A DNA stretch of 64,000 bases from Vicinamibacterales bacterium (GCA_965249205.1 CBDFLL010000004.1:776194-840193), one strand, 5' to 3'. Positions 6,322 to 26,230 are shown, counted from the stretch's first letter. The notes: generated by a model from the letters alone, not told the origin. Numbers and translations are program-made.

Positions 6322-6726
6322 CTAGAAGAATCCGCCGAAGTCCGCTGTCGTGCCGAGGACGAACTGTGAGGTCGCGGTGTCGAGCAACTCGTGCACCTCT
6401 CGGAGCTGACCGTCTTCGCACCGAACGAACAGGGCGTACTCAACCGAGTACTGCTCGCCGTTCGGGCGAATACGAGCGGTGTAGCGGAAGCGCACGCTGC
6501 TGCGTGCCGCGTCGCCGGTCTCGTCCAGGATCTCGACGTGGACGTCGGGAAAGTAGAGCTTGCCCCAGACGGCTCGATTGAAGGCGAGCACGGTGACTCG
6601 CCCTCTATGAGGACCCGCGAAGCGCCCGGACGATTCTGGCAGCGTCCACTCGATGTCGGGATGGTAGAGTTCGGCCATCGCGTCTGGATCGCCGAAGCGC
6701 TCGATGAGCCGCCGAGCTGGTGTCAT
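6322..6726 (-). CDS. SnoaL/NTF2-like protein
   Basis: 134 aa with LYHPDIEW, GPHRGR, DGQLREVHELLD; its stop codon lies in the CTAG target of IS5. Confidence 0.8.
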   Translation of the reverse strand: MTPARRLIERFGDPDAMAELYHPDIEWTLPESSGRFAGPHRGRVTVLAFNRAVWGKLYFPDVHVEILDETGDAARSSVRFRYTARIRPNGEQYSVEYALFVRCEDGQLREVHELLDTATSQFVLGTTADFGGFF

Positions 6727-6739
6727 GTTCGAGCCAGTG

Positions 6740-6823
6740 TCAGGCCCTCTCGATTTCGCTGAGATCGAGTTGTACGATGATGCGCGGCCGCATGACGAAC
6801 TTCTGTACCTTGCCCGTCACCAT
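6740..6823 (-). pseudogene. 3' remnant of an AMP-binding acyl-CoA synthetase gene
   Basis: Translates [26 protein letters not shown], aligning with the C-terminus of 19334..21028 ([26 protein letters not shown]). Confidence 0.8.
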
Positions 6824-6899
6824 CCTAAACAGAAACTTGGCCGAACTGAATCATCGACCAAGTTTCCGTTTTGGCACTCCTACGGGCAGAGCACCCTGG

Positions 6900-7057
6900 C
6901 AGCCCGTGGTGCAAGTCCGCCTGCATTCGACAAGCGATGCATCCTCGCGGTCTGCGTTGCTCCTCCTTCAAATACGCTCAGTATTCTCACTCGTCACGCC
7001 TTGTCCGCAAGGCGCCTCGCTCGTCTCGGTGCGACGCCGGGCTTTCACCACGGACTG
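6900..7057. mobile_element. MITE-like non-autonomous element, copy 1
   Basis: IRs CAGCCCGTGGTGCAAG and CTTTCACCACGGACTG; CTGG duplicated at 6896-6899 and 7058-7061; homologous to 52306..52560. Confidence 0.8.
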
Positions 7058-7063
7058 CTGGCG

Positions 7064-7987
7064 TTACCTAAAGCGCGCTCCAAAACGATCCCCAGATACC
7101 GAATTGCCATCATATTCTATGCATACAGCAGTCAGGGGGAACAAGGCGTTTGGATCAGGGTTTGGTCGCCGCTCAATCGGACTCACTTCCCAGGGCTCGA
7201 TAAATGCCGGGTCATCCACCGTCGTCTCAAGCGTGACCACGTCGCCCCGCCTGGTAAATCGCTCAGTAATTTTCGTGGCCGCACTCATCGGCCACCCTCT
7301 GGTGGAGTACCAGACAAGTTCGTCAGGAAAATCCACTGTTTCGACAACAAGAGTGTCTCCTTCCCAGCGACCAACCGTACTACCACCCAACTGATTCAAA
7401 CCTTCGTAGTCATCCTCTGAATGCAGCGGTCTGCCGTCGGTCGGCACTTGACGGATAGCCGGAGGCGCCCTCCCGTAAAGAAGCACTACCTTATTGGGTA
7501 ACTGGATAATCTCGCTTGGGAAGCCTCGCTTAATGATACCTTTCTCTTGGCAGCCGAAGCCAGGATCCGTCGGTCTCTCGTAAGCGTACTCTTCATTCCA
7601 TCTGACCTGCTCCCAATATTCGGCCTTGTAAAGAGGCATCCTGTCGCGATCAGACTTGATAATGATTTCCTGATCAATCTCGACCCAATAAAAGTTCCCG
7701 TCTCGCACCTGCATCGTGCTGCCTACTTCATCGCTGTCGGTATCAGCACCAGCAAAACCGAAAGCTCTCCCGCTCCGGGCATAAGGGCCCTCTTGCAGCC
7801 CAGGGACGCCTCCAATCCAAATACCGCTAAGATCGGGATGACCCTGTTCCGTGCGCGGTGTAGGCGCGCTCAGCAGCTCGTCACGCGAGGGGCTAGGGGG
7901 ACCACCTTGGCGACCTTGCGCTATTGCCGGCTGTGCCAGAACCGCTGTGATTCCAATTGCGAAAACCGTTCTCAACAAGATATGCAT
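7064..7987 (-). CDS. Exported hypothetical protein ('PDLSGIW' family), module gene C, copy 1
   Basis: Signal peptide, PDLSGIW, DPGFGC, DGRP-H, GRWEGDTLVVETVDF, terminal CIE; paralogue of 17269..18051. Confidence 0.85.
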   Translation of the reverse strand: MHILLRTVFAIGITAVLAQPAIAQGRQGGPPSPSRDELLSAPTPRTEQGHPDLSGIWIGGVPGLQEGPYARSGRAFGFAGADTDSDEVGSTMQVRDGNFYWVEIDQEIIIKSDRDRMPLYKAEYWEQVRWNEEYAYERPTDPGFGCQEKGIIKRGFPSEIIQLPNKVVLLYGRAPPAIRQVPTDGRPLHSEDDYEGLNQLGGSTVGRWEGDTLVVETVDFPDELVWYSTRGWPMSAATKITERFTRRGDVVTLETTVDDPAFIEPWEVSPIERRPNPDPNALFPLTAVCIEYDGNSVSGDRFGARFR

Positions 7988-16734: not shown

Positions 16735-17265
16735 ATGAGCTGCCGATTTTTCGGAATGCTAACGGTTGTTGGGCTGCTGATGTCCATCGCGCCGGCGGGC
16801 GCGCACCACGCCGCACAGGCGCAATTCGACATGACCAAGTCGGTAGCGCTCGAAGGGACGTGCCTGAGGTTTGCCTGGATCAACCCCCACGCCTACATGG
16901 ACCTGGAGGTCGAGTCGAATGGGGAGACGTCAACCTGGCGACTCGAGACGATCGCCGCTGCCGCGCTCAGGCGCGCCGGCCTGGCGCGTGGCAGCGGCGC
17001 CATCAAGTGCAGCCCGATTGGCGGTGGCGATACCTATAAGGTGCGTGGCATCCCCGCGCGCGATGGGTCTGACCTCGCGCTCGTGGTCGATCTGGAGCTG
17101 CCGGATGGAAGGGTGATCAACCTGTTCAGCGCCAGGGAGTACCGAGTTCCGGAGGGGTTTGAGATCGCAAGGTTAGGACAGCAGGACAAGGAGGGAGCTG
17201 GGACTCGTCTGGTGCTGGACGTCGGCAATCCGGTGGGTGAGCGTCCAATGATAAAGGGAGCCTAA
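16735..17265 (+). CDS. DUF6152-like exported protein, module gene B, copy 2
   Basis: AGGAG RBS; signal ending AGA then HHAAQAQFD; WINPH. Confidence 0.85.
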   Translation: MSCRFFGMLTVVGLLMSIAPAGAHHAAQAQFDMTKSVALEGTCLRFAWINPHAYMDLEVESNGETSTWRLETIAAAALRRAGLARGSGAIKCSPIGGGDTYKVRGIPARDGSDLALVVDLELPDGRVINLFSAREYRVPEGFEIARLGQQDKEGAGTRLVLDVGNPVGERPMIKGA

Positions 17266-17268
17266 GAC

Positions 17269-18051
17269 ATGAGACGTGGTCTGTTTGGTGCGACGTTGTT
17301 GGTATCAGCTCTGGCGGTCGGCTGTGCCAGCGAGCCAGAAGTACCGGACTTTTCCGGCATCTGGGGTGGAGGCGGTTTCGGTCTCGGCCTCACCGAAGAT
17401 GAGTCAGGAAACCTGGCCCTGGGCATCGAGAGGCTTTTCCGTGAGGGGTCTCTCGTGAACTTCGAACGCGACAGCAGCTTGAGCCAGCGGTCCAACCCCA
17501 ACCGGCCCATGTACAAGCCTGAGTACTGGCCGCTCGTGCAGTACTACGACCTGAACGGCAACCTGGAAGATCCGGAGTTCAAGTGTTTCCCGGCGGGCGT
17601 GCCGCGCATGGGACCACCCACGCAGATCGTCCAGACGCCCGACATGATGATCTTCCTGTACGAGACGCGCAACGAGCGCCGCATCATCTACATGGACGGG
17701 CGTCCGCATCCACCCGAAGAGGAGTGGGGAGGGCGCTGGTACGGCCACTCCATTGGCCGGTGGGAGGGCGACACCCTGGTGATCGACACCGTGGACTTCA
17801 CCGACGAGAGCTGGCTTGGCTGGCCAGGTTGGGCCCACAGCTACAATATGCACGTCGAGGAGCGCATGCAGCGCGAGGGCGATACGATGCACTGGCAGGC
17901 GACGGTGACCGACCCCGACGCCCTACTCAGGCCCTGGGTCATGGACGAAGAGACCAGGCAACTGAACGCCGACCCGATGGCCGAGATCGTTGAGGACCTG
18001 CCATGCTTGGAGCAAGATGCTGAGCACATCGTCACGAAGGAGCGCGGGTAG
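17269..18051 (+). CDS. Lipoprotein of the 'PDLSGIW' family, module gene C, copy 2
   Basis: Lipobox AVGC, PDFSGIW, DPEFKC, DGRPH, GRWEGDTLVIDTVDF, CLE. Confidence 0.87.
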   Translation: MRRGLFGATLLVSALAVGCASEPEVPDFSGIWGGGGFGLGLTEDESGNLALGIERLFREGSLVNFERDSSLSQRSNPNRPMYKPEYWPLVQYYDLNGNLEDPEFKCFPAGVPRMGPPTQIVQTPDMMIFLYETRNERRIIYMDGRPHPPEEEWGGRWYGHSIGRWEGDTLVIDTVDFTDESWLGWPGWAHSYNMHVEERMQREGDTMHWQATVTDPDALLRPWVMDEETRQLNADPMAEIVEDLPCLEQDAEHIVTKERG

Positions 18052-18054
18052 CTG

Positions 18055-19272
18055 TCAGCTCGGATTAGCCCGCGCCTTTCGTCGGGCCACCTGGGCCCGG
18101 GGGACCAAGGTGAGTCCCGCGTGTAGCCGTATCATGTCGTCAGGGTGTTTCTTCAACTTTTCACGAAGTTGCCATAGCAGATCGCCAGCGGCGGTTTCGT
18201 CCCAGAACCAATTGTTGATCTCCTGCGCACTGCCCACCCCGGGTTGGGCGATTGCCGCTTCGATATAGAACGCTTTCAAGTCTTCTACAGAGAGCTTGAA
18301 GGTTTCGGCCAGTGTTCTTTCGGCGATGGGTGACTCATCCGGTGTTGGGTCCTCCAGGAATTTGCCTAGCCAGGTGCAAAGGTCCTCCACCGCTAGTCCA
18401 CTCACGTCGGCGGCGCTGCGCCTTCGAAGGTCTCGACCACGGTCGAACCAGGGCATGAGCAGCCCGGTTTCTTCGAGTAAACGATCGGCGATTGCCTTCC
18501 CCCTGCTCGGCGCAGGAAATGACACTGGGCAGGCCCACACGGCGCCATGGGTGTCCCCGGTTACGGAAGGCATATCCACTTCTAACGTTTTCAAGATCGG
18601 TCCGGGACCATCTTCATCGAGCAACGCGAGCGCCGCGATGAGGACATCGCGTTGTAGAGCCACATTATTCGGTGCCCCAAATGGGCGCCCCAGGTCGAAT
18701 GGCACCACCAACGCGCGGGGTGGTCGAATGGTCTTCACGTGTTGTGGAACCAGTCCGATTGCGACCGTGGCAATCCCTGCAGCTTCCAGAATGTGACCCA
18801 GACCGCTCACGGCGATCGTGCACAAGGGTCACACAGGCACCAGCAATGCGATGTTGGTGCCTTCTCCGACCATGGCGCGGGCGAGCTGCTGTGCTGCCGG
18901 GCGTATCTGTTCCAGGCTTGTCGCGCCCATGAAAGAGAAGTGGTACCGCGCCACCGCTTCGATCTCTTTGTCCCCGGCCGCTTCTAACAGGCGTTGTAAC
19001 GGAAATACGACTTCGTTGTCTTGGAGGAAACCCGAGCGATCAAAATTCGTCGAGATATGGGTCATCAGCAGATCCCGAGAATCACGACGATCGATGATTC
19101 GGTAGTCTGCCGATCCGAAGCCGAATGGACGGTCTCCTCGTTGAATGAGGCCCGCGGTCGACACGATAGCCACTCGGCGTGAGTTTCTTGCTGGAGGTTC
19201 GACCCAGGGTGGGTCCCCGAAATCCGGGCACTGCCGCTCAGCGAGTTCTATCGGTACATCTTCTTCCCGCAT
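18055..19272 (-). CDS. Selenoprotein of the GrdB/PrdB-like (glycine/proline reductase selenoprotein B) family, read through an in-frame UGA
   Basis: Track ORFs 18829..19362 and 18055..18825 are in the same frame, joined as VPV-TGA-PLC; AIVSTAG and PPRAL-VPF-LGRP motifs; hairpin GTGAGCGGTCTGGGTCAC downstream of the TGA. Confidence 0.82.
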
Positions 19273-19333
19273 GGTCACCCTCTCCACACAGATTGAGAGT
19301 AATTTCAGTCCGAAGGAGGGCAATCCACCACTA

Positions 19334-21028
19334 TCAGGCCGTCTCGACTTCGCTGAGGCCAAGTTGTTCGATCATGCGGGCCCGCATGCGGAACTTCTGT
19401 ACCTTGCCCGTCACCGTCATCGGAAACTCCTCCACGAACAGGATGTACCGGGGAATCTTGTAGTGCGCGATTTGACCCTTACAGAACTCGCGGATCTCTT
19501 CCTCATCGGCGCGTTCGCCTCCGGCCAGCTTGATCCAGGCGCAGAGTTCTTCGCCATACTTCTGGTCTGGCACGCCGAACACCTGCACGTCGGCGACCTT
19601 CGGGTGACGGTACAGAAACTCCTCGATCTCGCGTGGATACAAGTTCTCGCCGCCGCGAATCACCATGTCCTTGATTCGGCCGACGATCTTGAAATAGCCG
19701 TCTTCGTCCATGGTCGCCAGGTCGCCCGAGTGCATCCATCCGGCGGCGTCAATCGTCCCGGAGGTGTTGTCGGGATCGTTCCAGTAGCCGCGCATCACGT
19801 GATACCCGCGGGCGCAGAATTCACCAGGCGTGCCGGGCCGAACGATGCGGCCCTCCTCATCGACGATCTTGATCTCAACATGCGGGTGGATGCGACCAAC
19901 CGTGCCGACGCGTCGCTCGAGGGAATCGTCCCGCTCCGTTTGCGTCGACGCAGGGCTCGTCTCGGTCATGCCGTAACCGATGGTCACCTGCTCCATGTGC
20001 ATCTTGTCGATGACCTCCTTCATCACCTCGACCGGGCAGGGCGCGCCAGCCATCATGCCGGTACGCAGGGTACTGAGATCAAACCTGTCGAACTCGGGAT
20101 GTTGCAGCTCAGCGATGAACATGGTCGGTACGCCGAGCACGCCGGTACAACGCTCGGCCTCAATCGCCTTCAGCGTCGCCAGCGGATCGAACGCCTCACT
20201 GGCAAACACCATTACCGCCCCGTGGGTCAGGCACGCGAGGTTGCCGATGACCATGCCGAAGCAGTGGTAGAGCGGCACCGGGATACACAAACGGTCGGCC
20301 TCGGTCATGGCCATGCGTTCGCCGAGAAAATAGCCGTTATTGAGAATGTTGTGATGCGTCAGGGTCGCGCCCTTCGGCAGACCCGTGGTGCCACTGGTGA
20401 ACTGGATATTGATGGGTTCGTCGAACTGAAACGTGTTAGCGAGCGCCTCGACCGCCGCATGGCCGGCGCTGGCCCCGCGCGCCACAATCTCATCGAACGT
20501 ATACATGCCGGCGACATCGCCACCGCCGAACTGAATGACGCAGCGCAAATGCGGCAGCTTCTCGGCGTGCAGGTCGCCAGGAGTGGCAGTGTCGATCTCA
20601 GGCGCAAGCGCACGGATCATGCCGACGTAGTCGCTCGACTTGAAGGCCGCCGCCGTAATCAAGGCCTTGCATTCAACCTTGTTGAGCGCGAATTCGAGTT
20701 CCGCCAGGCGATAGGCGGGATTGATATTCACCAGGATCACGCCGGCCTTGGCGGTCGCGAACTGGGTGACCACCCACTCCATCGTGTTCGGCGACCAGAT
20801 GCCCACGCGCTCGCCCGGTTCGAGACCGAGTGCGATCAGGCCCGCGGCAAGGTCATCGACTCGCGCCTTCAACTCGCCCCAGGTCCACCGGATGTTCTGG
20901 TGACGCACAACCAGAGCATCGCGGTCGCGCCAACGAGCAACCGCTTTGTCAAAGTGCACGCCGATCGTGTCGCCAATCAGCGTCGTGTCCGATGTGCCAT
21001 GCACGTAGCTTTGCGTCAATCCGGCCAT
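19334..21028 (-). CDS. AMP-binding acyl-CoA synthetase (ACSF2/FadD-like)
   Basis: [30 protein letters not shown]; likely ATG at 21028. Confidence 0.93.
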
Positions 21029-21092: not shown

Positions 21093-21887
21093 TTACTGGC
21101 CCGTGAACCGCGGCTTCCGCTTGTCGAGAAACGCGCGCACACCCTCTCGCCCGTCAGCGGAGACGAGGGAATCGACGATCCCCTCAAGCTCCTTGTCGAG
21201 CTGCGTTTCCATGTCGTTTCTGAAACTCGATCGCAGGAGATCGCGGACCCGGCCGTACGCCTGAGTCGGGCCCATCGCCAGACGGGCTGCAAGGGCTTGG
21301 GTGTGCTGGTGCAGGGCATCAGCCTCCACGACCCCGGTAATGAGACCCCAGTCCAAGGCTTCCTCGGCACTGAGCCGGCGGTTTGTCAGCAACAACTCCT
21401 GCGCGCGGCGTAGTCCCACGAGCTTGCTCAAATGCACCGTCATACTGCCATCTGGAGAAAGCCCGGCGGCCGTATAGGCGGCCGTAAAGGTGGCCGATCG
21501 GGCGGCGTACACCAAGTCGCCGGCAAGCGCCAGGCTCATGCCCCCGCCGGCCGCAACGCCGTTGACGGCAACGACTAGCGGCGCCTTGAGCTTCGCGAGA
21601 TGCTCGAGCGCCGTGTGAAAATCGGCAACCAGTCTGCGCAGCACGGACTTCGGCTCGTCGCCTGCCGTACTGAAGTACTTGAGGTCGCCGCCAACGCTAA
21701 AAAAGTCGCCAGACCCGGTCAGCAGGACAGCCCGCACGCCGGGATCGGCGCGACACGCGGTCGTGGCTTCCAACAAATCTGTCATGAACTCTGGGCCGAC
21801 CCGGTTGGCGATCTCCGGCCGACACATGCGAATGGTGGCCACGCTCTTCTCGACGGAGAACTCTATCGTTTTCTGACTCATGAGCAT
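21093..21887 (-). CDS. Enoyl-CoA hydratase/isomerase (PaaG-like)
   Basis: [35 protein letters not shown]. Confidence 0.92.
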
Positions 21888-23309: not shown

Positions 23310-24353
23310 CGTGCTTATCCGGTTGTTTCAGCTAACCCCTATATCTTGCGATCAGCCTGGGGGGCGCACGTCCTGCGCGCCGCGAATCCGTCGGGCGGGC
23401 GTGGGCGTCCGTCCGGTCCCCAGGCCCAGCAGGGTCTGAAAGGCGGCCATCGGGTGCCGCCGCCGATTGTGCCGAAACACGAACTCATCGAGGTAGACTT
23501 GTAGTTGCGCCTTGCTGACGCCGTGGTGCGTGCCAATCAACCACTGTTGGCAATTGCCGATGACGCGGTCGGCCAAAGGCACGACGGAGGGCACCCCCCT
23601 GTGCAGGGCGCTCCGGATCGGTTGCGGGCGGGCGACGTGTCTCACGTCAGCGGCCTGGAGCCCATCGAAACTTTTCAGCCCGTCGGTGTAGACCGTCGCC
23701 CCCGGCGCAATGTGGTGAGTGACGAACGCGAGCATCGTCGATTGTTTGAAGTTCGGGATCACGGACATGCGGACCCGACCCGACCGATCCCCGCGTCGTT
23801 CCACCGCCACCAGCACCAGCGCGGCTTTCCGCCCCTTGAGTTGGCGACTGCCGCGCAGGCCGGCCTGGGGCGCGCCCACCCAGGTGTCATCGATCTCCAC
23901 GTCGCCGTACAAGGGCTCCCGCCCCGCGTTCACCATCGCGCGCCGCAGCTTGTGCAACAGCAGCCACGCCGTTTCGTACCGCCGCAGGCCCAACTGCCGC
24001 TGCAGCAGGAGCGCCGAGAGGCCCCGCTTGTCGGTAACCGTCAAATAGGCCGCCCAGAACCACACCAGGAGCGGCGTCTTCGTGTTGTGGAGAATCGTCC
24101 CGGCGGTCAGCGACACCTGATACCGGCACGCCGCACATTGCCAGCGCCGGTGTGTGGTCAGGCGATAGCCGCGCGCGTGCCGGCACCGGGGACACACAAA
24201 GCCGTCCGGCCAGCGGCACGCCGCCAAGTAGTCCTGACAGGCCTCGGCGGTCGCAAATTGCCGCTGAAACTCCCGGAGATTCTTCGGAAACGACGGGCGC
24301 GCCACGCCGATACACTACCGGTGGTGGCTTGCTGAAACAACCGGATAAGCACG
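23310..24353 (-). mobile_element. IS1595-family element (ISSod11-like ends), copy 1
   Basis: Perfect 23-bp IRs CGTGCTTATCCGGTTGTTTCAGC at 23310-23332 and 24331-24353. Confidence 0.92.
23352..24305 (-). CDS. IS1595-family transposase
   Basis: RWPDGFVCPRC..C..C zinc ribbon, VEIDD, YTDG, YLDEFVFRHNRR. Confidence 0.95.
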   Translation of the reverse strand: MARPSFPKNLREFQRQFATAEACQDYLAACRWPDGFVCPRCRHARGYRLTTHRRWQCAACRYQVSLTAGTILHNTKTPLLVWFWAAYLTVTDKRGLSALLLQRQLGLRRYETAWLLLHKLRRAMVNAGREPLYGDVEIDDTWVGAPQAGLRGSRQLKGRKAALVLVAVERRGDRSGRVRMSVIPNFKQSTMLAFVTHHIAPGATVYTDGLKSFDGLQAADVRHVARPQPIRSALHRGVPSVVPLADRVIGNCQQWLIGTHHGVSKAQLQVYLDEFVFRHNRRRHPMAAFQTLLGLGTGRTPTPARRIRGAQDVRPPG

Positions 24354-24566: not shown

Positions 24567-25019
24567 ATGCTGCGACTATCGAAAAAGGCCGACTACGCGC
24601 TCATGGCCGTGAGGCATCTGGCTCTGCCGGATTCACCCTCATCCACGAGCGCACGGGAGATTGCCGAGCAGTACGACATTCCGCTCGAGCTGATGGCGAA
24701 GGTGCTTCAGCGGCTCGTGCGGGCCGGCTTACTGATCTCGACGCAAGGGACACGGGGTGGCTACACGCTGAGCCGGCTGCCGGCGGCGATCAGCGTGGCC
24801 GACGTGATTCAGGCGATCGACGGGCCATTCACGGTGACTGCCTGTTCAACGGACAACAACGATTGTGATCAGTACAGCAAGTGCAGTATTCGCGACCCGC
24901 TCTGGCAGATTCGAGAGCGAATTGCAGCGACCCTTGACACGGTAACCATTGCCGAAATGGCGGCAGAGAGTGATGCGGTGGAGGTGCCGATGGCGCACAC
25001 CGCGGTGATAAGACTATGA
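24567..25019 (+). CDS. iscR: Rrf2-family Fe-S cluster regulator
   Basis: Rrf2 wHTH (GTRGGY), three Cys (C-X6-C-X5-C), first gene of the isc operon. Confidence 0.85.
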
Positions 25020-26230
25020 AGCTTCCGATTTACATGGACTATCACGCCACGACACCCGTGGATCCGCGTGTGCTGGAGGCGATGCTGCCCTATTTCACCG
25101 AATGCTTCGGTAATGCGGCGAGCCGGAATCACGCCTTCGGGTGGGCTGCGGAAGAGGCAGTGGACAAGGGCCGTAAGCAAGTGGCGGATCTCATCGGTGC
25201 GAAACCGAAGGAGGTCATTTTCACAAGCGGAGCCACAGAATCCAACAACCTGGCCATCAAGGGCGTCGCGGAGATGTACCGCGAGAAGGGCAACCACGTC
25301 ATCACGTGTGTGATCGAGCACAAGGCGGTCATCGACACGTGCAAGAAGCTGGAAAAGCAGGGGGGGCGCGTCACCTACCTGCCCGTACAGAAGGACGGGC
25401 GCATCGACCTGGACGAGCTTCGCGCGGCGATTACGGACAAGACGATCCTGATCACGATCATGACGGCCAACAACGAGATCGGCGTGCTCCAGCCGGTGGC
25501 CGAGATTGGTGCGATTGCCAAGGAGAAGGGGATTCTGTTTCACACCGACGCGGTTCAGGCGGTTGGCAAGGTGCCGTTCGACGTCAACGAGGTCAAGGCC
25601 GACCTGGTATCTCTCTCTGCCCACAAGATGTACGGCCCGAAGGGGGTGGGGGCGTTGTACGTGCGTCGCCGCAATCCACGTGTGCTGCTGGCCGAGCAGA
25701 TCAGCGGTGGCGGTCACGAGCGCGGCATGCGCTCAGGCACGCTGAACGTGGTGGGCATCGTGGGGCTCGGCAAGGCTGCGGAGATCTGCCAGGCCGACAT
25801 GGCCGCTGACGCAGCACGTCTGCTGGCTCTGCGCGAGCGCTTAAACAAGAAGTTTCACCAGAACCTGGACGAGATTTACATCAATGGCTCGATGGAGCAC
25901 CGGCTGCCGCACAACATGAATATCAGCTTCGCGTATGTCGAAGGCGAATCGTTACTGATGGGTATCAATGATGTAGCGGTGTCGTCAGGTTCCGCATGCA
26001 CGTCCGCCAGCCTCGAACCCTCGTATGTGCTGAAGGCACTCGGCGCAGGTGACGACCTGGCACATTCGTCCATTCGGTTCGGACTGGGGCGGTGGAGTAC
26101 GGAAGAGGAGGTCGACTACGTTGTGGACAAGCTCACGGACGTCGTGCGGCGCCTCCGCGAAATGTCGCCACTGTACGAAATGGTGAAGGAAGGCGTGGAC
26201 CTTTCGAAGATGCAGTGGATTGCGCACTAA
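25016..26230 (+). CDS. iscS: Cysteine desulfurase
   Basis: [26 protein letters not shown]-terminal SPLYEM. Confidence 0.97.

Follow-up and report, generated by a model that had tools for sequence, protein, structure and literature searches.

A predicted two-domain PrdB-like selenoprotein, read through an in-frame UGA, in a Vicinamibacterales bacterium

Gene calling in bacteria typically treats UGA as a stop, and a gene in which this codon is decoded as selenocysteine (Sec) then appears as two separate pieces. Here we report such a gene on the minus strand (19272..18055) of a stretch of 64,000 nucleotides (nt) from a Vicinamibacterales bacterium (GCA_965249205.1 CBDFLL010000004.1:776194-840193), hereafter referred to as the window. 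The gene is predicted to encode a selenoprotein of two domains, an N-terminal domain remotely related to the PrdB and GrdB subunits of the Stickland reductases and a C-terminal helical domain, and belongs to a family that is spread over several phyla and that routine annotation splits at the Sec codon. We consider it very probable that, taken as a whole, the best explanation is a stand-alone PrdB-like selenoenzyme that is decoded with Sec and performs redox chemistry.

The reading frame consists of 405 codons from the ATG at 19272, ends in a TGA at 18055-18057 and holds a single internal TGA at 18829-18831. Translation of this internal codon as Sec (U) gives the context LLVPV-U-PLC, with Sec at residue 148 and a cysteine at residue 151. 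Under translation table 11 the one frame is listed as two open reading frames (ORFs), 18829..19362 and 18055..18825, and the TTG at 18825 from which the second appears to start is the codon for Leu150 of U-P-L-C. The initial annotation of the window had recognized the two ORFs as one frame parted by TGA, and its start codon, its length of 405 residues and its U148/C151 assignment are all confirmed on the sequence. The gene is present as a single copy in the host genome.

Decoding of the in-frame UGA

The host genome (5.18 Mb in 6 contigs, 99.3 % complete) holds the genes required for Sec decoding. Matches to selA (572.7 bits), selD (318.3 bits), selB (339.3 bits) and a tRNA-Sec (62.9 bits; anticodon tca according to ARAGORN) all lie above the curated cut-offs and form a single cluster of less than 6 kb on contig C5 (G000:C5:1429453-1435165, G000 being the host genome). 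The selD match itself (G000:C5:1430967-1431881, locus L010) falls within an open frame of 784 codons while the SelD profile has 311 positions, a frame length that suggests a fusion of the host SelD to another domain.

The homologous genes carry the same codon at the same place. Two scans of species-representative genomes provided 7 and 80 homologous loci (87 in all), and relatives make up at least 550 of the 577 pattern matches listed in the second scan. The retrieval pattern did not require TGA and a second pattern was written with Cys, so that the sampling of loci is not biased towards TGA. According to tblastn, TGA occupies column 148 in 89 out of 89 stretches that cover it (the 87 loci contain 90 stretches, one of which falls short of the column), an agreement far beyond chance. 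The frame remains open past the TGA to a stop codon in 85 of the 87 loci, for about 255 further codons and 383-417 codons from the start of the match; at the other two it runs off the contig. In distant full-length homologues the Sec column holds Cys, as part of PVCPxC, PTCPxC and similar motifs, and each of these proteins is one continuous polypeptide. This form was found in 15 of 18 fetched representatives and in P0056, P0034 and P0075; the three representatives without a Cys match are P0111, which lacks the first Cys, and the aberrant predictions P0090 and P0193. The sel genes and the homologue column were two of the checks that the initial annotation had proposed, and both turned out in favor of its observation. 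The state of affairs it had named as fatal, no Sec machinery and homologues with neither Cys nor TGA, was looked for and did not hold.

Public protein records bear the trace of the same codon. Most of the 84 matches from a word-indexed database have lengths of 223-257 residues and a query coverage of 48-62 %. An exhaustive profile search returned 3967 representatives at E <= 1e-3 and 562 at E <= 1e-30. Among the best 150 representatives about 20 are full length and most others start at profile positions 156-197, just past the Sec column; these pieces are 200-270 residues long. A few representatives end at position 153, and P0079 terminates in "...LLAPV", one residue short of Sec. Pieces that break at this point have the signature of a mis-called selenoprotein.

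A conserved hairpin follows the UGA. To describe the selenocysteine insertion sequence (SECIS) we used a gap-free alignment of the 48 nt from the UGA in the window and 85 loci (86 rows), numbered from the U of UGA. The family helix consists of seven pairs, nt 15-21 with nt 25-31, around the loop G22-U23-N24, and both G22 and U23 (window positions 18810 and 18809) are invariant in 86/86 rows. The 85 distinct sequences pair in 88.4 % of 595 cells; slid registers reach at most 58.0 %. Two-sided changes occur at four of the seven pairs, with 19 cells changed on both sides compared to 5.1 +/- 1.7 after shuffling, a count reached by none of 500 shuffles. Third codon positions have a mean identity of 90 % in the stem versus 52 % outside, an excess that is hard to attribute to protein coding alone. 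Pair 21-25 is unpaired in 17 of the 85 sequences. In the window, the helix GAUCGC/GCGGUC forms 6 pairs around the 5-nt loop CGUGA (-7.8 kcal/mol), with A16-U30 replacing the consensus C-G and U17-G29 replacing G-C; both exchanges keep the pairing and alter the encoded amino acids. The element is a stem-loop just 3′ of the UGA with a small apical loop containing G, which is the form of bacterial SECIS elements (a downstream stem-loop with a small G-containing apical loop) given in PMC1088965.

Folding energy by itself is unremarkable: the thermodynamic fold of the 66-nt stretch alone has z = -1.13, with 24 of 200 shuffles as stable. The minimum-free-energy structure of these 66 nt pairs the UGA itself and finds no support in the homologues. 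A different hairpin, GUGAGCGGUCUGGGUCAC, had been put forward in the initial annotation. As described there, its first nucleotide lies 18 nt past the UGA and its sequence includes GGUCUG; it overlaps the conserved hairpin. As a SECIS it fails: its helix (nt 22-25/36-39) is paired in 76.2 % of cells versus 76.0 % in shuffled alignments (221 of 500 shuffles reach this value) and a register slid by +3 pairs better (84.4 %), so that there is no covariation signal. The hairpin that is conserved is the one at 18801-18817.

All the sequence hallmarks of recoding are present, and on this evidence the two ORFs are one genuine selenoprotein gene in which the TGA encodes Sec.

A PrdB-like domain joined to a helical domain

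The N-terminal part of the protein matches TIGR04483 (PrdB, NCBIfam) with an E value of 2.6e-19 and 69.6 bits, residues 32-219 corresponding to profile positions 30-219 of 238. The PrdB-like character and the UxxC motif claimed by the initial annotation are thereby borne out. The score does not reach the equivalog cut-off of 300 bits. Weaker matches to GrdF (33.5 bits), GrdH (29 bits), TIGR01918 (20.9 versus a cut-off of 65.45) and TIGR01917 (20.3 versus 602.2) are all sub-threshold, as is Pfam PF07355 (GRDB; 11 bits versus 22). Those to GrdF, GrdH and TIGR01918 sit in the C-terminal half of models of about 435 residues (profile positions 251-423 of 431-435). Because all scores are below the curated cut-offs, the N-terminal part is best classified from its sequence as a remote homologue of PrdB/GrdB and not as a member by the curators' thresholds. 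The UxxC of PrdB is present as U148-P-L-C151, and the range of the hidden Markov model match indicates that the U148 column is probably the Sec column of PrdB.

A whole-protein AF2 model based on a 12-row alignment (pLDDT 84.1, pTM 0.84) consists of an alpha/beta domain at about residues 30-230, a low-confidence linker and a helical domain. The best structural match of the N-terminal domain is 9kpr_B (VIA-align Z 9.1, root-mean-square deviation (rmsd) 3.4 A over 139 aligned residues; model residues 27-243 were matched). Entries of the LacI and SDR families follow at Z 7-8.5, and these matches identify generic Rossmann-like folds only. Foldseek returned no match to the whole protein at E <= 0.001, and a profile search of the PDB sequences found nothing below E 0.099.

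The extra C-terminal helical domain of the initial annotation is also present in the model. Folded alone from the 31-row alignment A2, the domain shows seven helices with a pLDDT of 91.4; the C-terminal alignment has a mean column identity of 42 %. The domain has no Pfam or NCBIfam match. Its best structural match, 7w1m_D (VIA-align Z 5.1, rmsd 4.9 A, 102 aligned residues; best Foldseek E 1.9), is, by the guidance given with the tool, below the level usual for unrelated helical models, and neither a new nor a known fold follows from it. The linker between the domains is modelled with a pLDDT below 50 at residues 236-247 and carries a nearly invariant cysteine, Cys248. This residue is Cys in 84 of the 85 complete Sec-type loci read by eye (L106 has Gly) and is invariant in A2.

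According to the record titles, the 87 loci come from Alpha-, Beta-, Gamma- and Deltaproteobacteria, Desulfobacterales, Acidimicrobiia, Chloroflexota/Dehalococcoidia, Nitrospinota, SAR324, Entotheonella, Binatia, Myxococcota and the Delta-1 symbiont of Olavius. The two-domain proteins make up a large family, with members in Proteobacteria, Desulfobacterota, Acidimicrobiia, Chloroflexota and further phyla, and form a remote branch of the PrdB/GrdB superfamily.

The family is represented unevenly in the phylum of the host. We searched 401 genomes drawn evenly from this phylum, and 107 of them, counting the host genome and the unpublished genome G086, have a match at E <= 1e-20. Matches to the full profile occur at only seven places: the host genome, four genomes of one genus (E ~1e-130 to 1e-135) and two further genomes at ~1e-81. 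The remaining matches, at profile positions ~31-240, represent a short form, a PrdB-like gene that stands by itself; many of these genes contain one TGA and others lack it, with Sec in some and Cys in others. The short form is found in about 100 genomes of the sample versus seven for the two-domain form. The C-terminal domain profile matched only inside two-domain genes. No free-standing C-terminal domain gene was found beside the short genes in the 401 genomes, a search that may have missed divergent domains (G360 and G197 have no match to the A2 C-terminal domain profile).

Closer to the host, two samples of other members of its taxonomic family contained no two-domain gene (0/24 and 0/12), and three relatives carry the short Sec form (loci L022, L023 and L024 in genomes G020, G013 and G024, respectively) with the motif PV-U-P-F/M-C-H-Q. 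Such patchiness of the two-domain gene in its own lineage would fit horizontal acquisition. An aldehyde dehydrogenase encoded nearby has its best matches in Woeseiaceae and unclassified Gammaproteobacteria (63-67 % identity), which is weak evidence for a gammaproteobacterial host.

Genomic setting and proposed chemistry

PrdB and GrdB act with partner subunits, and the initial annotation had pointed out that none is encoded in the window. Their absence extends to the 99.3 %-complete host genome, where neither PF09338 (PrdA/GrdE) nor PF04723 (GrdA) has a match; the PF04723 search had no positive control anywhere. Among five other carrier genomes represented by whole chromosomes, four likewise lack PF09338. 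The fifth, G426, has a PF09338 match of 281 bits, which demonstrates that the search is able to detect the family, and this match lies more than 1.3 Mb from the two-domain gene. All five carriers have selA above the cut-off. With neither PrdA/GrdE nor GrdA detected in the host genome, the protein is predicted to stand alone.

No other partner emerges from the neighbourhood. When 788 ORFs from the surroundings of 88 loci (the window and the 87 others) were clustered, no cluster was present at more than 10 loci. The most frequent are TauD (10/88), a MEDS/HTH regulator (10/88, with 9 of the 10 copies within 1.5 kb), SelA (8/88) and a pyridine-nucleotide-disulfide oxidoreductase fused to a VTT domain (8/88), followed by GGDEF-EAL proteins (6/88), HAD hydrolases (5/88) and class IV aminotransferases (5/88), with histidine kinases and RidA also among the clusters. 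Hand checks of six loci agree that there is no general neighbour family. At the eight loci with selA, this gene and in some cases a probable selB lie a few kb from the two-domain gene (for example L048 10895-12532 and L025 10201-11280), suggesting that the latter is one reason these bacteria retain the Sec machinery. Genes for TauD, aminotransferases and RidA, scattered among the loci, could point to amines or amino-acid-like compounds and are too rare to carry weight. Three loci have a second copy of the gene directly downstream of the first (L029 9267-9689, L030 7443-8318 and L103 2764-2997); in L029 the second copy loses the frame just after the TGA through a frameshift or an assembly error.

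We propose that UGA148 would be decoded as Sec by the SelA, SelB, SelD and tRNA-Sec of the host, directed by the hairpin at nt 15-31, whose apical loop contains G-U. If PrdB and the UxxC redox selenoproteins in the motif tables of earlier surveys are taken as a guide, Sec148 would act as the nucleophile on a substrate or an oxidised partner, and Cys151 would resolve the adduct to a selenenylsulfide. Re-reduction could then proceed via the linker Cys248, a candidate relay, or via a reductant of the thioredoxin or pyridine-nucleotide-disulfide type. The chemistry would take place without a pyruvoyl partner (PrdA/GrdE) or GrdA.

Several points weigh against this proposal. The window hairpin is weaker than most, at -7.8 kcal/mol versus a family median of -10.7 kcal/mol (nt 13-33); it has 6 base pairs including one G-U pair, with a C-A mismatch at pair 21-25, and pair 17-29 is unpaired in 37 of the 85 sequences of the family. 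A pyridine-nucleotide-disulfide oxidoreductase that might serve as reductant is a neighbour at only 8 of 88 loci. The redox mechanism is proposed from the UxxC motif and from the analogy with PrdB.

A more specific version, which we put forward tentatively and regard as rather unlikely, is that the two-domain family constitutes a self-contained selenol/thiol enzyme of an undescribed kind, in which Cys248 on the disordered linker acts as a swinging arm. Sec148 and Cys151 would then do the chemistry in the PrdB-like domain and the arm would carry electrons or a covalent intermediate to the helical domain of unknown fold, replacing the separate pyruvoyl or carrier subunits of the Stickland reductases. 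If so, hundreds of marine and sediment species would possess an enzyme of this kind.

The setting of the gene in the window allows for a different role, at which the initial annotation had hinted. The gene does follow an enoyl-CoA hydratase/isomerase and an acyl-CoA ligase, as stated there; it starts 61 nt downstream of the ligase on a common strand, the three genes may be co-transcribed as one operon, and a divergent acyl-CoA dehydrogenase lies on the plus strand. A stand-alone selenoenzyme of acyl-CoA or fatty-acid-type metabolism could thus act on the product or the substrate of the adjoining ligase or hydratase. The metabolic link is not conserved: an AMP-binding ligase or a hydratase adjoins the gene at 0 of the 87 other loci, the ligase cluster has three further members, all at a distance of 3-6 kb, and the dehydrogenase cluster a single further one. 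About 4 kb away from the selenoprotein gene, an IS1595-family transposase (DDE_Tnp_IS1595 and zinc ribbon; 23352-24305, minus strand) separates the acyl-CoA dehydrogenase from a class V aminotransferase, and the region may have been rearranged or acquired. The gene is, in addition, the only two-domain copy among the sampled members of the taxonomic family. Because the ligase and the hydratase do not recur beside the gene at the other loci, the acyl-CoA setting is a local accident particular to the host genome, and a function in acyl-CoA metabolism is improbable.

Less probable still is a role of the protein as a true B subunit in Stickland-type metabolism, in a D-proline or glycine/betaine reductase whose partner is encoded elsewhere. 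PrdB is its best named match, some relatives are labelled 'D-proline reductase (dithiol) PrdB' by the Joint Genome Institute and one carrier genome has a PF09338 gene; set against this are scores far under the cut-offs (69.6 versus 300, 20.9 versus 65.45 and 11 versus 22), the failure to find PF09338 and PF04723 in the host genome, the absence of PF09338 from four of the five other carriers and an extra domain that is C-terminal where the extra part of the GrdB-type proteins is N-terminal. The least probable explanation, a nonsense mutation or two separate genes encoding a 147-residue protein that ends at the TGA and a second protein that starts at TTG 18825, has on its side the two ORFs of table-11 gene calling and the separate entries of the halves in public predictions, and is effectively refuted by the TGA in 89/89 homologous stretches from several phyla, by Cys homologues that are single polypeptides, by a TTG that is merely Leu150 of U-P-L-C and by the conserved SECIS and complete Sec machinery.

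The features of the gene and its upstream neighbours are collected in Table 1. The run GGAGAGGG resembles a ribosome-binding site and may serve the selenoprotein gene as such. On the other side of the gene, a DUF6152 protein gene (16735-17265, plus strand) and an ORF of 260 residues without a Pfam family (17269-18051, plus strand) are convergent with it, the latter ending 3 nt from its stop codon. The class V aminotransferase (25016-26230, plus strand) belongs to the fold family of cysteine desulfurase and selenocysteine lyase; such a gene lies within 7 kb of the two-domain gene at three of the 88 loci (the window, L026 at 6366-7643 on the minus strand, and L042), maybe by coincidence. Farther away the window contains a cobalamin riboswitch (RF00174; 43411-43538, minus strand) that matches the full-length model with 66 bits.

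Table 1. Coordinates in the window of the selenoprotein gene, its parts and the genes upstream of it
Feature	Position	Strand	Basis or remark
Complete selenoprotein gene	18055..19272	-	405 codons plus TGA stop; aligned over full length with 8 Sec and 3 Cys homologues
Shine-Dalgarno-like run GGAGAGGG	19278-19285	-	5 nt before ATG 19272; from sequence
PrdB/GrdB-like domain, residues 32-219, Rossmann-like alpha/beta	18616..19179	-	TIGR04483 match and AF2 model
UGA codon for Sec148, motif U-P-L-C	18829..18831	-	TGA in homologues, Cys in distant ones
Core SECIS hairpin	18801..18817	-	nt +15 to +31; covariation and third-position conservation
Cys248, W-A-C-P-V motif (family W-x-C-P-V), inter-domain linker	18529..18531	-	Conservation in homologues
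C-terminal seven-helix domain, residues ~260-405	18058..18495	-	Domain model, 31-row alignment
AMP-binding acyl-CoA ligase	19334 to ~21090	-	Pfam PF00501/PF13193; upstream of the selenoprotein gene
Enoyl-CoA hydratase/isomerase	21093-21887	-	Pfam PF00378; upstream of the acyl-CoA ligase

Relation to PrdB, GrdB and the surveyed selenoproteins

The interpretation offered by the initial annotation is partly supported: the selenoprotein and its stand-alone status hold, the acyl-CoA link fails to recur at other loci and no general partner is apparent among the 88 loci. The protein is less novel than first presumed: UxxC 'proline reductase PrdB' selenoproteins are recorded in surveys from 2005 to 2008 (PMC1088965, PMC1976440, PMC2398784). 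Our literature search found no description of the two-domain form or of its function.

Gene callers split the gene in nearly every public record; most entries are pieces of about 245 residues that bear the label hypothetical, and the family thereby escapes routine annotation. The family is large, with at least 550 stretches in species-representative genomes and 562 representative clusters at E <= 1e-30. A curated full-length model that continues past the Sec codon would put many annotations right and provide a defined target for biochemistry.

Compared to PrdB of Clostridium sticklandii and C. difficile, the window protein aligns over nearly the whole PrdB length and shares Sec in a UxxC motif (for PrdB as given in the motif tables of PMC13188914 and PMC9312934). 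It differs in its score of 69.6 bits against a cut-off of 300, in a host genome that yielded no PrdA, in a C-terminal extension of about 185 residues that includes a conserved linker Cys, and in a host background that is not clostridial. What is shared with GrdB, GrdF and GrdH (PF07355, TIGR01918) is the Sec-bearing domain, as a remote homologue that takes up the C-terminal half of the GrdB-type proteins and the N-terminal half of the window protein; no GrdA or GrdE was found in the host genome and the scores are under the cut-offs. The short PrdB-like proteins of the host relatives (L022-L024) are 38-40 % identical to the window domain and have TGA at the matching column within PV-U-P-F/M-C; unlike the window gene, their open frames have 241-288 codons and encode no helical C-terminal domain.

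Comparable proteins in the literature are the 'PrdB' selenoproteins of environmental surveys. The Sargasso Sea survey counted 42 selenoproteins as "proline reductase PrdB", with the motif UXXC (PMC1088965). Under pfam07355, the Global Ocean Sampling survey counted 235 Sec forms plus 110 homologues with Cys (PMC2398784), and the 5 "proline reductase" selenoproteins of the Olavius symbiont paper all belong to Delta-1 (PMC1976440); two reviews, from 2022 and 2026, give only "D-proline reductase, TIGR04483, UxxC" (PMC9312934, PMC13188914). The consulted passages of these five texts do not mention an extra C-terminal domain or a missing PrdA. The surveyed group resembles the window protein in its UxxC motif, its pfam07355 label and its abundance in aerobic marine samples and in a sulfate-reducing symbiont, a comparison by description in which the two-domain form and the short form of about 240 residues are not distinguished. 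The only link to the survey sequences is the full-length homologue L055 from an Olavius Delta-1 genome. In bacteria without PrdA, the usual name "proline reductase" is probably a misnomer. With these comparisons, the window protein is a new member of a catalogued kind, the UxxC 'proline reductase PrdB' that surveys have counted since 2005.

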